Positions 1 to 6,941 of a stretch of DNA of 64,000 nucleotides are shown here, piece after piece. The notes beneath the pieces are model-generated. The model was not told the DNA's origin. It saw only the letters and a program-made list of their open reading frames with translations, and did no database searches. The DNA comes from a candidate division FCPU426 bacterium (GTDB taxonomy: Bacteria; Oederibacteriota; Muellerivitia; Muellerivitales; Muellerivitaceae). The stretch's first letter is position 1, and each line of letters starts with the position of its first letter. The position numbers were made by a program, and so were the translations under genes. Location of the stretch: positions 1,544,760 through 1,608,759 of the forward strand of contig CAWCKJ010000004.1 in the NCBI GenBank assembly GCA_963796105.1, read 5' to 3'.

Positions 1-616
1 CCCGCCTTTCACGAAAAAGGGTTGGTACCGCCATGGAGAACACGAATACAACGAATGTGTCCATCAACCCATAGGCTGGCAACAACCAGTCCGGTTTGTG
101 GCGATGAGGACGCTGGATGAAAAAGCGCGGGAGAAACAATTGAGCCTTCCTGAAATGGAAGGATATGTCTACCGAATCTTCGCGACCAACTGTCTGGGAG
201 CACCCCATCGGGTGGTTGAGGAATACGACCTGCGCGCGGATGTGGAAAACCTGATTGGTGAGGCGCAACGGGAGGGGTTATTAGCAATTCCCTCTAAGAG
301 TTTCCAAAGCCACCATGCTTTTTTCCAGATCGTGATGCTGGCTTACAACCTCTGGAGGTGGATGAAACTAATGGTGGGCCATTGTGGAAAAGAAAAGCGA
401 CCGGGAAAGAAGCCACAGGAGAAGGAACAGATCACCATGCCGGACCATACCCTTCGGATCGCACGTTTGAAGATGCTCTTTGTAGCCGCCCGAATCCAGT
501 ATCACGGCCATCGGGATGTGGTGAGGTATTCAATCCATGATGATAGGACAGCGGGCCTATTGGGTTTCCTCAAATACCTTGATCGAAAACGATTGGAAAG
601 ACCCAGGGCGGCCTAG
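1..616 (+). CDS. IS1380-family DDE transposase, C-terminal part
   Basis: YDLRADVENLIGEAQ and LAYNLWRW motifs; same protein as the C-terminus of ORF 61196-62626. Confidence 0.92.
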   Translation, partial: PPFTKKGWYRHGEHEYNECVHQPIGWQQPVRFVAMRTLDEKAREKQLSLPEMEGYVYRIFATNCLGAPHRVVEEYDLRADVENLIGEAQREGLLAIPSKSFQSHHAFFQIVMLAYNLWRWMKLMVGHCGKEKRPGKKPQEKEQITMPDHTLRIARLKMLFVAARIQYHGHRDVVRYSIHDDRTAGLLGFLKYLDRKRLERPRAA

Positions 617-2175: not shown

Positions 2176-2495
2176 ATGTACCGATTAATATTTTTAACAA
2201 TTCATGGGAATCGGCACTATGCCGGGCCGGTTCCCCTATGGAACCGGCACCATCAAAACGAGTGCCTCGGCCGGAAGCCTCGGCACAGATAGACTTCCTT
2301 ATAAAAATTTCCAATAGAAGGTCAGCATGTACCGATTAATATTTTCGATAATTCAAGGAAATCGGCACTATACCGGCCTCAGTATAAAAACTTCCATTAG
2401 AAGGTCAGCATGTACCGATTAATATTTTCGATAATTCAAGGAAATCGGCACTATACCGGCCTCAGTATAAAAACTTCCATTAGAAGGTCAGCATG
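2176..2495 (+). repeat. 83-bp tandem repeat (2 exact units plus 1 diverged upstream copy) abutting the hsdR start
   Basis: TAGAAGGTCAGCATG recurs with ATG at 2327, 2410 and 2493 (period 83). A diverged copy of the unit body starts at 2176. Confidence 0.95.
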
Positions 2496-4847
2496 AACGA
2501 AGCCGAGACCAGGGCCGAACACATAGACCCGGCGTTGAAAAACGCGGGGTGGGGCGTGGTGGACGGCAGCCGCATTTTGCGGGAATACCAAATTACTCCC
2601 GGGCGCATCGAGGGGGTGGGGAGACCCAATAAGCCTTCGATTGCCGATTATGTGTTGGTCTATCGAAACAACAAGATGGCCGTGGTGGAAGCCAAGGCTT
2701 GGGATGAGGAATTAACCGAAGGGGTTGGCCAGGCCAAGGCCTACGCGGACAAAATGGCTGTTCGGTTCGCCTATTCCACCAACGGCCAGGGCGTTTACCA
2801 GATCGACATGCAGACCGGCAAAGAGGGCAAGTTATCTGCTTTTCCAACGCCCGATCAGCTTTGGGCCGCGACTTTTTCCGAAGCGAACGCCTGGCGGGAC
2901 CGTTTCTCCGAAGTGCCTTATGAGGACAAAAGCGGCAGTCATCCATCGCGCTTTTACCAGGACATCGCCATTGACCGGGTGATGGAGGCTATCGCGGCAA
3001 AGAAAAACCGCATCCTGCTTACCCTGGCCACGGGAACGGGAAAGACCTTTATCGCATTCCAGATCGCCTGGAAACTTTTCCATAGCCGATGGAACCTGAG
3101 CGGCCAACCCACCCGCCGTCCCCGAATTCTTTTCCTCGCCGACCGCAACAACCTGGCCGACCAGGCCTATAACGCTTTTTCCGCGTTTGCCGAGGACGCA
3201 TTGGTTCGCATCAAGCCGGACGAGATCCGGAAAAAGGATCGGGTGCCGACTAACGGGAGCATCTTCTTCACGATTTTCCAAACTTTTATGAGCGGCCCGC
3301 CCAAGGAGGGGAAGCCGCCTGTCCCTCAAAGCCCAGCGGGCGTAGTGGGATCGCCCTATTTCGGCGATTACCCGAAAGATTTCTTCGATTTTATCGTGAT
3401 TGACGAGTGCCATCGCGGAGGGGCGAACGATGAAAGCAATTGGCGCGGCATCATGGAATATTTTTCCCCGGCCGTGCAGTTGGGCCTCACGGCTACACCC
3501 AAGCGCCAGGAGAACGCGGATACCTACGCCTATTTCGGCGAACCGGTTTATATCTATTCCCTGAAGGAAGGCATCAACGATGGGTTCCTCACACCCTTCA
3601 AGGTGCGGCAGATATCCACGACATTGGATGAATATGTCTATACCCAGGACGATAACGTTGTTGAGGGTGAAATCGAGGCGGGCAAAAGGTACACCGAGCC
3701 CGACTTCAACCGGATCATCGAAATCAAGGAACGCGAAGCCTACCGGGTGAAACTGTTCATGGACCAGATCAACCAGAACGAGAAAACCCTGGTCTTTTGC
3801 GCCACGCAAGCCCACGCTTTGGCGGTTAGGGACCTGGTCAATCAGATGAAGACCAGCACAGATCCCAACTATTGCCAAAGGGTCACGGCCGATGAGGGGG
3901 AACTTGGAAACCAGTACTTGCGGGATTTCCAGGACAACGAAAAGACCATCCCGACCATTTTGACCACTTCCCAGAAGCTCTCCACCGGGGTGGATGCCCG
4001 CAACGTGCGCAATATCGTGCTGATGAGGCCGATCAATTCCATGATCGAGTTCAAGCAGATCATCGGCCGGGGGACCCGCCTTTATGACGGCAAGTATTAC
4101 TTCACGGTTTACGACTTCGTGAAGGCCCACCACCACTTTAACGACCCGGAATGGGACGGGGAACCACTGGAGCCGGAACCGAAAGAGCCGAAATACAAGG
4201 ATGATCATCATCACCCGGGGGCGAGTGAAAAAAAGGCTGAACATGATAGACCGCAAAGAGTCAAAATAAAACTCGCCGATGGGAAAGCCCGTACCATCCA
4301 ATCAATGATGGTCACGAGTTTCTGGCATCCCGACGGGACTCCCATGAGCGCCCAACAATTCATGGAATTGCTATTCGGGAAATTACCAGGATTTTTCAAG
4401 AACGAGGCAGAGCTTCGCGCGATTTGGAGCGCGCCGGACACGCGCCAGGGATTATTAGAAGGTCTTTCCGAGAAAGGTTTCGGGAAGGATCAACTTACCG
4501 AGATGCAAAAGATCATTGACGCGGAAAAGAGCGACTTATTTGATGTATTGGCTCACGTAGCTTATGCTTTGGCGCCCTTGACCCGCGAGGAACGAGCCCA
4601 AAAGGCAAAACCCCAGATCAGCGCCCAATTCAACGCCCACCAGCAGGCTTTCCTTGATTTCGTGCTCGACCATTATGTAAATGATGGGGTGGAAGAGTTG
4701 GAAACCTCGAAGCTGACGCCTCTTCTTCGCCTCAAGTACCACAATGCTCTTCAAGACGCCTTGGCTGACCTAGGCCCAGCCGAAACAATCAATAAAATGT
4801 TCTTCGGCTTCCAGAAGTACCTTTACCAACCTGTAACATCGAACTGA
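2493..4847 (+). CDS. hsdR: Type I restriction enzyme R subunit (EcoAI/EcoEI-like)
   Basis: ADY..VVEAK nuclease motif, LATGTGKT, IDECHR, QIIGRGTR, C-terminal EKSDLFDVL region. Confidence 0.93.
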   Translation: MNEAETRAEHIDPALKNAGWGVVDGSRILREYQITPGRIEGVGRPNKPSIADYVLVYRNNKMAVVEAKAWDEELTEGVGQAKAYADKMAVRFAYSTNGQGVYQIDMQTGKEGKLSAFPTPDQLWAATFSEANAWRDRFSEVPYEDKSGSHPSRFYQDIAIDRVMEAIAAKKNRILLTLATGTGKTFIAFQIAWKLFHSRWNLSGQPTRRPRILFLADRNNLADQAYNAFSAFAEDALVRIKPDEIRKKDRVPTNGSIFFTIFQTFMSGPPKEGKPPVPQSPAGVVGSPYFGDYPKDFFDFIVIDECHRGGANDESNWRGIMEYFSPAVQLGLTATPKRQENADTYAYFGEPVYIYSLKEGINDGFLTPFKVRQISTTLDEYVYTQDDNVVEGEIEAGKRYTEPDFNRIIEIKEREAYRVKLFMDQINQNEKTLVFCATQAHALAVRDLVNQMKTSTDPNYCQRVTADEGELGNQYLRDFQDNEKTIPTILTTSQKLSTGVDARNVRNIVLMRPINSMIEFKQIIGRGTRLYDGKYYFTVYDFVKAHHHFNDPEWDGEPLEPEPKEPKYKDDHHHPGASEKKAEHDRPQRVKIKLADGKARTIQSMMVTSFWHPDGTPMSAQQFMELLFGKLPGFFKNEAELRAIWSAPDTRQGLLEGLSEKGFGKDQLTEMQKIIDAEKSDLFDVLAHVAYALAPLTREERAQKAKPQISAQFNAHQQAFLDFVLDHYVNDGVEELETSKLTPLLRLKYHNALQDALADLGPAETINKMFFGFQKYLYQPVTSN

Positions 4848-5105
4848 AAAAAACCTAGTCCGAACTTGACCCAAATATCCTATGTCCGGAATTGTTCCGA
4901 TATTTGTGTCTGAAATGGGAACTTATGGCCAATTAAGGCCATTATTAAAAAATATGGTGGTATTGTCTTTTGGGTTGGGGGGTTATAATTTTAGTGAAAG
5001 AGCGTTAATAATATAGACGTCAAAAAAGACGATGCTATACTCACCCCCTTAAATTCAAGTTAAGTTCGCGAGTTCATTGCCGTTAGGGAATACAGGAGTT
5101 GCCTT

Positions 5106-5582
5106 ATGACCCGCTACCCATTGTTCTTTACCTACAGCTTTACGATTCCCGGGAATAATTTTTTGGCCACCATCAGAATATCGAATGGACAGGCTCTGAT
5201 GGTCCAAGACGAGGATGAGTGGTGGATGTACGGTGTTTGCCCCGGTTCTATCTCCGACGGCGGCGCTACGCCCCAAGAAGCTTATTTAAAATTCTGCGAT
5301 ACCTTCAAACAGATTCTGGAAGATATCGCTTTTGATAAACACGATTTTCAGTCGTTTGAATCGGAAGTTAAAAGCTTTGTCCTGGCCGCGGATGCCAGCG
5401 AGCAAAAAGAGTGGTTAAACGCCCGGGAGTCGATACGTTCAGGACAAATACAGCCGGAGGGCCCATTTAAGGATTTAAAGCGCATTACGACCGATCCTGG
5501 CGTAATGGTTACGGTGTCGTGCCTAGACGTTAAAAAATCTTTTGAAGTTGCGGCCGATAACCAATTAGCTGCCGCGGCTTGA
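5106..5582 (+). CDS. Putative divergent HicB-like antitoxin
   Basis: WWMYGVCPGSISDGGATPQEAYLKF resembles the HicB G-x-T-x-E-E-A signature; lies directly upstream of a HicA-like ORF. Confidence 0.5.
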   Translation: MTRYPLFFTYSFTIPGNNFLATIRISNGQALMVQDEDEWWMYGVCPGSISDGGATPQEAYLKFCDTFKQILEDIAFDKHDFQSFESEVKSFVLAADASEQKEWLNARESIRSGQIQPEGPFKDLKRITTDPGVMVTVSCLDVKKSFEVAADNQLAAAA

Positions 5583-5583
5583 G

Positions 5584-5859
5584 TTGACCTCGACTGGTCA
5601 ATGCCGCCTAAGCATTATCAGGGAAATGCTGGAACATTGCGTCCCGGGTTCTCATTTGGAGTTAAAAAAACATCATTATTGGGTTTATTGCCCTGGAAAA
5701 GAAATTTTCAGGGATTTGCCCAAGGGGGAACATGGTGCGCAAGACCCGGAAATCCAAATGGGAAAAATCAAGAAAATGGTCCGGTTTCTTGGGATAGAAG
5801 AATGCGCATCCGGTTTTATCCCGGGAATAAAGTTCAAGCAAACCGCATCGGAAGGTTAA
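5584..5859 (+). CDS. Putative divergent HicA-like toxin
   Basis: 91 aa; KKHHYW..LPKGEH..EIQMGKIKKMVRFLGI follows the HicA pattern. TTG start 1 bp after the upstream stop. Confidence 0.5.
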   Translation: MTSTGQCRLSIIREMLEHCVPGSHLELKKHHYWVYCPGKEIFRDLPKGEHGAQDPEIQMGKIKKMVRFLGIEECASGFIPGIKFKQTASEG

Positions 5860-5894
5860 CCACATGAGTATTTCCAGGGAAGAAAATTAACACT

Positions 5895-6500
5895 ATGGCT
5901 ACCCCGTTCCAATACCGGAAAATCACCCAAGCGATAAATTTTTTCGCTGAAAAAGAAAATAATAAAACCATCAACGTCACAAAAGTCGTAAAACTCCTCT
6001 GGGCCGCCGATCGATATCACTTACGTAAATACGGAAGATTATTAACTTGCGATAATTACGTCGCGATGGAAAGGGGCCCGGTGGGTTCAACGGTTAAAGA
6101 CATCGCGGAAGAAAGCAATTTTTTACCCGCCGGCATTGATTCATATTCGACCAAATACCTGAAGCCTAGGCAATATGTGACCCAGTCATGCCGTGAAGCC
6201 GATATGAAAGTGTTTTCACAAACTGATATTGAAGCTTTGGAATTTGCCAATACTAATTTTGGCTCCATGTCCCAAAGCGAATTAACGCATTTATCACATC
6301 AATATCCGGAATGGAAAAGATTCGAGGGGAAATTAAAGTCCAAAGCTAGTTTGAAAGAAGATATCGACTTCCTTGATTTCTTTCTCGATCCAAACCCTGA
6401 AAACGTCCCGGACGATAAATTCAAAATGGATGACGAGCTTTTAGCTTTAAGCAAGGATATTTTCTCTGAAGAGACTGAAATTACGGGTTTGCTTTCTTGA
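5895..6500 (+). CDS. Panacea-domain (DUF4065/SocA-like) antitoxin
   Basis: KLLWAADRYHL..GRLLT.DNYVAMERGPV..LSH..PEW: GPV and H..PW motifs of DUF4065. Confidence 0.85.
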   Translation: MATPFQYRKITQAINFFAEKENNKTINVTKVVKLLWAADRYHLRKYGRLLTCDNYVAMERGPVGSTVKDIAEESNFLPAGIDSYSTKYLKPRQYVTQSCREADMKVFSQTDIEALEFANTNFGSMSQSELTHLSHQYPEWKRFEGKLKSKASLKEDIDFLDFFLDPNPENVPDDKFKMDDELLALSKDIFSEETEITGLLS

Positions 6501-6506
6501 AAAATC

Positions 6507-6941
6507 ATGACACTTACACCGGAAGAATTAAATGATTATATTTTTCCAGGTTCCGTACTTCGCTTAAGCAATTCCAATACCTTTTCCGTAGAACCCCATT
6601 ACCATATCATCCTGAATAAAAATCCGCTAACTGATCCGGACATAGTCATGGTTATTGCTTCGACCAACATCGAGGGAAGATTGCGGCATGCGCAAAAAAC
6701 AGGCAAGGCTCCATCGACATTGTTGATTTTTGAAAATAAAGATTGTTCTTTTTTAAGCGAGGAATCTATTTTTGATTGTAATTCGCCCTCCGCCATTTCC
6801 TTGAGCGCCCTTTATGACAAATATAATTGTGGGGAATGGACAATTAAGAATAAATTTTCAGTGTCACCTGAGATATTGGAGAAATTTAGAAATGCGGTTC
6901 GGCTTAGCGCTGCTGCGGCCTATTTTAAGGAATTGCTTTAA
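6507..6941 (+). CDS. Putative PanT toxin, PemK/MazF-like fold
   Basis: 6 bp after the Panacea gene; PGSV..PHYHIIL..VIAST..FLSEESIFDCN pattern resembles PemK-like proteins. Confidence 0.5.
   Translation: MTLTPEELNDYIFPGSVLRLSNSNTFSVEPHYHIILNKNPLTDPDIVMVIASTNIEGRLRHAQKTGKAPSTLLIFENKDCSFLSEESIFDCNSPSAISLSALYDKYNCGEWTIKNKFSVSPEILEKFRNAVRLSAAAAYFKELL

Follow-up and report, generated by a model that had tools for sequence, protein, structure and literature searches.

Whether four closely spaced genes form one defence system or are separate modules lying side by side is the question raised by a 64,000-nt stretch of DNA from a candidate division FCPU426 bacterium (GenBank assembly GCA_963796105.1, contig CAWCKJ010000004.1, positions 1,544,760 to 1,608,759 of the forward strand). 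The full stretch is referred to as the window, and the cassette of four open reading frames (ORFs) occupies positions 5106-6941 on its + strand. The initial annotation, made from the sequence alone, had described HicB-like, HicA-like, Panacea, and PemK-like genes as a candidate for an undescribed four-gene system, possibly with two stacked or cross-wired toxin-antitoxin (TA) pairs in which one Panacea guards both toxins. The ORFs encode 158, 91, 201, and 144 aa with gaps of 1, 35, and 6 bp between them, and the tight co-directional packing was confirmed. ORF1, ORF2, and ORF4 gave no significant match in Pfam, NCBIfam, PADLOC, or PHROGs, in agreement with the earlier view that they are too divergent for annotation. 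The four genes are two separate modules, found side by side only in this genome among everything searched. The explanation that we consider reasonably probable is that the cassette holds two independent, likely type II TA pairs, that ORF1 is a degron-bearing HicB-like antitoxin, and that the pairs likely act in addiction or abortive infection inside a defence island.

The C-terminal tail of ORF1 and the host tmRNA tag

ORF1 (5106-5582, + strand) is a predicted HicB-like antitoxin of 158 aa, and its C-terminal tail reads AADNQLAAAA followed by the stop codon (5550-5582). The host genome has a single transfer-messenger RNA (tmRNA), encoding ADNQLALAA. An initial alanine precedes the encoded tag, so that tagged proteins end in AADNQLALAA. 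The ORF1 tail is identical to this host tag (A-ADNQLALAA) at 9 of 10 positions, with Ala replacing Leu at -4, and the next best match among the 9,303 ORFs of 100 aa or more in the genome is 5 of 10. Residues 143-158 have a predicted local distance difference test (pLDDT) score <50 in the AlphaFold2 model. ORF1 thus combines a terminal Ala-Ala, tag-like upstream residues, and a low-confidence tail, as expected from the sequence of an ssrA-class degron, and the tail is predicted to be, and likely is, a hard-coded ClpXP degron. It differs from an ssrA tag in being encoded in the gene and not added by trans-translation. The host has clpX above the cut-off, with a clpP-like ORF recognized by eye beside it. 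This feature of the tail was absent from the initial annotation.

Relatives of ORF1 were collected by profile searches of genomes and metagenomes, which gave 52 loci, duplicates included, and 42 distinct genes; word-based searches gave two relatives each for ORF1 and ORF2. Full-length relatives are about 156-169 aa, and P0007 (68% identical overall) and P0008 (61%) have tails identical to that of ORF1. An Ala-Ala end was found in 39 of the 42 distinct ORFs. The other three are a 66-aa fragment, a single long-branch gene, and the front part of a gene split by a frameshift, of which the rear part does end in Ala-Ala. The same end occurs in none of 36 ordinary short HicBs, in 63 of the 9,303 genome ORFs, and in 1 of 134 background ORFs in Acidobacteriota loci; among the partner families, it was seen in 0/36 ORF2, 0/17 Panacea, and 0/134 ORF4 relatives. 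Several Ala codons are in use at both terminal positions, and the Ala-Ala end is present in all major clades of a 42-row tree built without the tails. Ten ordinary hicA (PF07927) loci are also present in the genome (L033-L042), with short HicB-like genes upstream where ORFs are listed; among these HicBs, small hydrophobic C-terminal residues (IAV, VAI, IHA) are frequent, but Ala-Ala ends are absent.

Terminal Ala-Ala is described as the key ClpXP signal in Escherichia coli and as necessary for strong ClpXP degrons (PMC10862746). The way in which antitoxins are singled out for degradation is still mostly undefined. A 2016 review gives no conserved intrinsic degron in the antitoxin families and classes that it aligned, only small hydrophobic residues in HicB (PMC4963847). 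In RK2 ParD, an ssrA-like motif has been described within the protein (PMC6191456). The literature covered, with most subscription journals outside its scope, gave no paper on an antitoxin family whose genes encode a C-terminus resembling ssrA.

Several observations weigh against the degron prediction. Ala-Ala alone was insufficient as a degron in the E. coli screen (PMC10862746), and the members of the ORF1 family are kin, not independent cases. Among the 20 family genes with a credible host tag, the match is 9, 7, and 6 of 10 in three and 2-4 in 17; in this comparison, made with ARAGORN, 4 of 24 genes were set aside, with the tags of G100 and G451 mis-called at relaxed settings and none found for G067. 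The whole family shares an Asp-Asn or Asn-Asn motif close to the tail, and part of the 9 of 10 match is therefore inherited. An alternative, which we hold to be unlikely, is that ORF1-ORF2 is a TA pair in which Ala-Ala is a weak or structural feature, the 9 of 10 match is part inherited and part chance, and ORF1 is turned over by another route, e.g., Lon. The median host-tag match of about 3 of 10 among relatives agrees with this, as do the family-wide motif, the poor enrichment of 39% of Ala-Ala 5-mers in the E. coli screen (PMC10862746), and the listing of E. coli HicB as a Lon substrate. It sits less well with an Ala-Ala that is fixed at the free C-terminus throughout the major clades next to variable residues at -10 to -3, with the low model confidence of the tail, which fits disorder, and with two distant members that come near the tags of their own hosts (7 of 10 and 6 of 10).

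The tail and tag DNA are identical at 23 of 30 positions, as would be seen in an assembly chimera with tmRNA sequence, but 5 of the 7 differences are synonymous or stop-to-stop, and a contig of public run X4 spans positions 5499-5717 with zero differences. These silent differences and the same bases in the public run indicate that the tail is not a chimera, and the identical tails of P0007 and P0008 also speak against one; we give this explanation a negligible probability. Cassette sequence was found in four public sequencing runs, all of DNA and each with a small share, none of which spans the cassette; no RNA run was listed.

HicB and HicA likeness of the first pair

The initial annotation had called ORF1 HicB-like. 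The AlphaFold2 model of ORF1 was built from 17 sequences (pLDDT 84.8), and its core consists of three strands and a helix. HicB antitoxins are characterized by an N-terminal partial RNase H fold (beta-beta-beta-alpha). Structural comparison with HicB N-terminal domains gave Z of 3.6-5.2, including 2dsy (Z 5.2, root mean square deviation [rmsd] 2.9, 72 aligned) and 6g1c (Z 5.0, rmsd 4.0, 71 aligned), with further matches to the HicB structures 6g1n, 4p78, 6u0i, and 5yrz. The top row for the model in BFVD is named "Antitoxin" (E 0.11). Alignment of ORF1 with a profile of 36 ordinary short HicBs using hhalign gave 76.8% (P 2e-5). An Atlas search placed ORF1 with unnamed clusters at 0.92-0.96 and with HicB families at 0.76-0.77, which serves as a lead only. 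Against this assignment, the HicB matches have Z of 5.2 or less and are tied with unrelated folds such as dihydroneopterin aldolase, and no Foldseek match to the model at E 0.001 or less was obtained in PDB or BFVD. The HicB likeness of ORF1 has moderate support. No DNA-binding domain (helix-turn-helix, ribbon-helix-helix, or Phd, as in HicB classes 3-6) was found in ORF1 in Pfam or among the whole-model fold matches.

ORF2 (5584-5859, + strand) is a putative HicA-like RNase toxin of 91 aa with a TTG start 1 bp past the ORF1 stop. Relatives share homologous residues over this N-terminal stretch, in support of the TTG start; in the protein database, ORF2 is given as a shorter form of 77 aa that begins at an internal ATG. 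In the ORF2 family, L16, C19, and C74 are invariant, and His30 is present in at least 90% of 32 members. Alignment with 32 HicAs using hhalign gave 29% (P 6e-4, 59 columns) and placed His30 on the HicA His, within the range of residues 23-36 in which the HicA catalytic His falls. The cross-comparisons of ORF1 with HicA and of ORF2 with HicB gave no match in hhalign. HicA has a catalytic His, and HicB masks the HicA active site (PMC11594946). The HicA identity is weak in other respects. The ORF2 profile performed no better against HicA sequences than reversed controls, ORF2 has no significant match in Pfam or PDB, and only 1 of 32 members matched PF07927 (E 0.14). PDB sequence searches with the ORF1, ORF2, and ORF4 profiles returned chance matches alone. 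With 76.8% for ORF1 and HicB versus 29% for ORF2 and HicA, and the failure of ORF2 to exceed reversed controls, the HicB likeness of ORF1 is therefore probable and ORF2 as a HicA-like RNase is plausible but unproven. The earlier HicA-like label for ORF2 has weak support.

C19 and C74 of ORF2 lie in the first and last predicted helices and are missing from the ordinary HicA alignment; they may form a disulfide or a metal site. At L093 (1465-2468), an ORF1-family gene has no Ala-Ala end, and the ORF2 homolog behind it is longer by about 85 aa at the C-terminus.

An ORF2 homolog was found in 45 of the 52 ORF1-family loci, two more show an ORF2 start at the contig end, and five have none detectable although their flanks are intact. 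These five loci, together with the weak similarity of ORF2 to HicA and the two invariant Cys unseen in the HicA alignment, would suit a reversal of roles or a function outside TA systems, with ORF1 as an unstable toxin or regulator held low by its degron and ORF2 as an accessory protein that is no RNase. SocB, a toxin kept down by ClpXP, offers a precedent. We think such an arrangement quite unlikely, since HicB but not HicA aligns with ORF1, HicA but not HicB aligns with ORF2 and places His30 at the HicA His, and hicB before hicA is described as the common order (PMC10865869) that also holds in at least 9 of the 10 PF07927 loci of this genome.

With ORF1 taken as the antitoxin, the closest published systems are hicBA classes 2, 7, and 8, in which, as in ORF1-ORF2, a HicB-like gene comes first, a coupled small HicA-like gene comes second, and a DNA-binding domain is not recognized (PMC10865869). 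Gerdes 2024 describes hicBA without a DNA-binding domain as the commonest arrangement (PMC10865869). The HicB lengths given there are 63-103 for class 2, 216-233 for class 7, and >330 for class 8, and the 158 aa of ORF1 fit none of these. ORF1 also differs from these classes in an extra N-terminal hairpin, extra helices, and the conserved Ala-Ala tail, and neither ORF1 nor ORF2 matches PF07927 or PF15919. A term search of the whole text of Gerdes 2024 (PMC10865869) returned no mention of ssrA, degron, or Clp. The best reading of the sequences and models is that the ORF1-ORF2 family would be an unnamed hicBA-like variant with a hard-coded ClpXP degron on its antitoxin.

Distribution of the two pairs and the Panacea module

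ORF3 (5895-6500, + strand) is a predicted antitoxin of 201 aa with a single Panacea domain (PanA/SocA, DUF4065). It matched PF13274 (E 2e-18; 67.8 bits, above the curated cut-off of 25.7) and phrog_1281 (E 1.6e-18), so that its Panacea identity, proposed earlier, is secure. Scanning of the ORF1 alignments and ORF3 against viral contigs gave no match.

ORF4 (6507-6941, + strand) is a MazF/PemK-fold protein of 144 aa and a putative PanT RNase toxin. A profile search gave 301 relatives at E 0.001 or less, and ORF4 was modelled with AlphaFold2 from 134 sequences, made up of the query, P0002, and 132 more out of 150 listed. The model (pLDDT 96) had 1ne8 as its top Foldseek match (E 8.8e-6, probability 1.0), and those listed among the 56 matches at E 0.001 or less are MazF-family or type III toxins. 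VIA comparison with 4mzm gave Z 10.4 (rmsd 3.4, 109 aligned), and an Atlas search gave a cluster named PemK at 0.96. The PemK-like label was thereby confirmed at the level of fold in the predicted model. ORF4 scores below the cut-off of PF02452, which is matched by 4 of 134 ORF4 relatives, and tblastn of ORF4 against phages and plasmids gave no match. MazF toxins have a catalytic Arg and Thr pair. In the ORF4 family, His31 is invariant and S/T52-S/T53 is conserved, and judged from motif order only, His31 would stand where MazF has the catalytic Arg.

Of 17 other loci with an ORF4-family gene, 15 have a Panacea gene next to it, which is upstream and co-directional in 14 and convergent in 1; the remaining 2 end early, 3 of the 17 were fetched with a Panacea query, and one further match, interrupted by a stop codon, was not counted. 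The gap of 6 bp between ORF3 and ORF4 is within the <100 bp used for PanAT partner genes. In Kurata 2022, two PanA pairs with MazF/PemK-like toxins, from P. moraviensis and B. ruminantium, are reported as validated (PMC8832971). As in PanAT clusters T5, T6, and T25 of that study, a single-domain Panacea lies directly 5' of a MazF-fold gene, with gaps of -4 to 9 in three published rows versus 6 bp here (PMC8832971). The differences are the score of ORF4 below PF02452 and its family's His31 in place of the MazF catalytic Arg, the latter by motif order only. Panacea may neutralize directly or act as a sensor (PMC10440598). ORF3-ORF4 is thus likely a Panacea antitoxin with a MazF-fold toxin, as predicted, and this type of pairing is ordinary and already published.

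Such pairs were also seen in a phage and a plasmid. Marinitoga camini virus 1 (L021 2495-3593; UF08_38, UF08_39) carries a Panacea and an ORF4-family gene, both annotated as hypothetical, and Phaeobacter inhibens plasmid NZ_CP081254.1 (L023 2567-2947) has, after an annotated Panacea gene, a 126-aa ORF4-like ORF that the PLSDB gene table lacks. A second Panacea gene of the host genome (L133, C12:224002-224316) lies behind an AbrB-like/PIN-like pair recognized by eye, and no ORF4-type partner was found for it.

At least 1 kb of downstream sequence is available for 36 of the 42 distinct ORF1-family genes, and a Panacea or ORF4 gene is there only for the gene of the window (0/35 others); the count covers neither P0007 nor P0008, which are closest to ORF1. 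Across all 52 ORF1-family loci, Panacea or ORF4 matches fall only in those of the window itself. Conversely, ORF1 or ORF2 was found near none of the 17 other ORF4-family loci. Of 99 genomes of the host phylum, 4 have ORF1 and 9 have ORF4, and the one genome with both (G006) has them on separate contigs; in 401 Acidobacteriota genomes, ORF1 occurs in 17 and ORF4 in 7, with none in common. The host genome holds a second ORF1-ORF2 pair on the minus strand (C4:451175-450414; about 40% and 33% identical), without Panacea. The two pairs are therefore found each without the other, which supports the earlier idea of two stacked pairs. The proposal of an undescribed four-gene system was not upheld, as the pairs never co-occur elsewhere in anything searched (0/35 and 0/17 loci), and cross-wiring through one Panacea that guards both toxins is unsupported, with no Panacea in the 35 other downstream regions of the ORF1 family. 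A point on the other side is that the four-gene order may extend through the small P0007/P0008 clade.

The second pair (L001 7413-8176) has the same stop-then-TTG junction and a hairpin with a T run downstream. A duplicated stretch resembling a tRNA start was recognized by eye about 500 bp 5' of the pair, and an intact tRNA-Ser(CGA) lies about 10 kb off, which suggests an integrated element.

A single co-evolved four-gene defence system, with Panacea guarding or coupling both RNases, would account for the tight co-directional spacing and for the scan in which no terminator-like site was seen between the pairs; Panacea is also described as neutralizing diverse folds and possibly acting as a sensor (PMC8832971, PMC10440598). 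The reading is nevertheless highly improbable. A second such locus appeared in none of the searches and each pair occurs alone, the two pairs differ in GC content (47.0% for ORF1-ORF2 versus 39.9% for ORF3-ORF4), and a Panacea pair lies immediately behind hsdR sequence, without ORF1 and ORF2 between them, in L032 and probably also in L025. Taken as a whole, the four genes amount to an ordinary accumulation of modules within a defence island.

A Panacea and a predicted ClpXP substrate in one cluster also recall SocAB, the type VI TA system of Caulobacter in which Panacea is a ClpXP adaptor. The resemblance ends there, as the tagged ORF1 is the predicted antitoxin of the other pair, the ORF1 family is not with Panacea elsewhere, and ORF3 scores 14 bits on NF047745 versus a cut-off of 190.

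Predicted mechanism and genomic setting

For two independent pairs, we infer toxicity, binding, degradation, and trigger as follows. ORF3 likely neutralizes the MazF-fold ORF4 separately from ORF1-ORF2. By analogy with HicB and HicA, ORF1 would bind ORF2 and mask its active-site His. The antitoxin would stay in excess during growth through the strong Shine-Dalgarno sequence of ORF1 (AGGAG 7 nt ahead of the ATG) and the coupled TTG with which ORF2 starts, and the exposed ssrA-like tail likely feeds ORF1 continuously to ClpXP, so that it would be permanently short-lived. If ORF1 is destroyed as fast as a tmRNA-tagged protein, then ORF2 would quickly be set free by any halt in ORF1 synthesis, such as through island loss or a phage shutting off host expression.

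A further proposal, which we regard as doubtful, is that ORF1-ORF2 founds a new hicBA-like class in which an encoded ssrA tag replaces DNA-binding autoregulation and the antitoxin shares a ClpXP queue with tagged proteins. In this more speculative scheme, mRNAs cleaved by the toxin would give tmRNA-tagged proteins that compete for ClpXP and stabilize the antitoxin as negative feedback, phage shut-off would drain the antitoxin and let the toxin fire, and the tail of this lineage would have converged on, or been captured from, the host tmRNA tag. How hicBA without a DNA-binding domain is regulated is asked in Gerdes 2024 (PMC10865869). With a family ending in Ala-Ala and one clade carrying a nearly whole host ssrA tag, this question and that of how antitoxins are marked for destruction could both be addressed by a two-residue change.

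The cassette has a GC content of 42.8% versus 53.7% for the window, and 7.6% of 2,706 same-sized genome windows are as low or lower. The AT bias noted in the initial annotation is therefore real but mild. The cassette had also been placed directly after hsdR, which is indeed the preceding gene (2493-4847, + strand; EcoAI/FtnUII-family type I restriction subunit R, NF046051 E 9e-249), but 258 bp separate its end from ORF1. Ahead of ORF1, a possible sigma-70 promoter (5014-5041, + strand; TAGACG-16-TATACT with a TG before the second hexamer) is a chance-level match, the promoter scan having found 4 sites versus 4.4 expected; the terminator scan was likewise at the level of chance. Before hsdR in the same island lies an AAA_14 and DUF4143 ATPase gene (965-2131, + strand), the PADLOC candidate PDC-S01, and 5' of the window start are hsdM, hsdS, RhuM, Bro-N, and an IS1380-like transposase. 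The type I restriction genes, RhuM, Bro-N, transposase, and PDC-S01 candidate nearby indicate a defence-island setting.

The first 24-37 codons of hsdR occur twice more 5' of the intact gene, in copies that are 96% and 86% identical, at C4:1542669-1542740 upstream of the window and at about 760-870 in the window, and Bro-N, IS1380-like, and AAA-DUF4143 genes stand between hsdS and hsdR. These copies and intervening genes point to repeated insertions at the hsdR start. The IS1380-like transposase (window 98-616) has about 21 near-identical full copies genome-wide.

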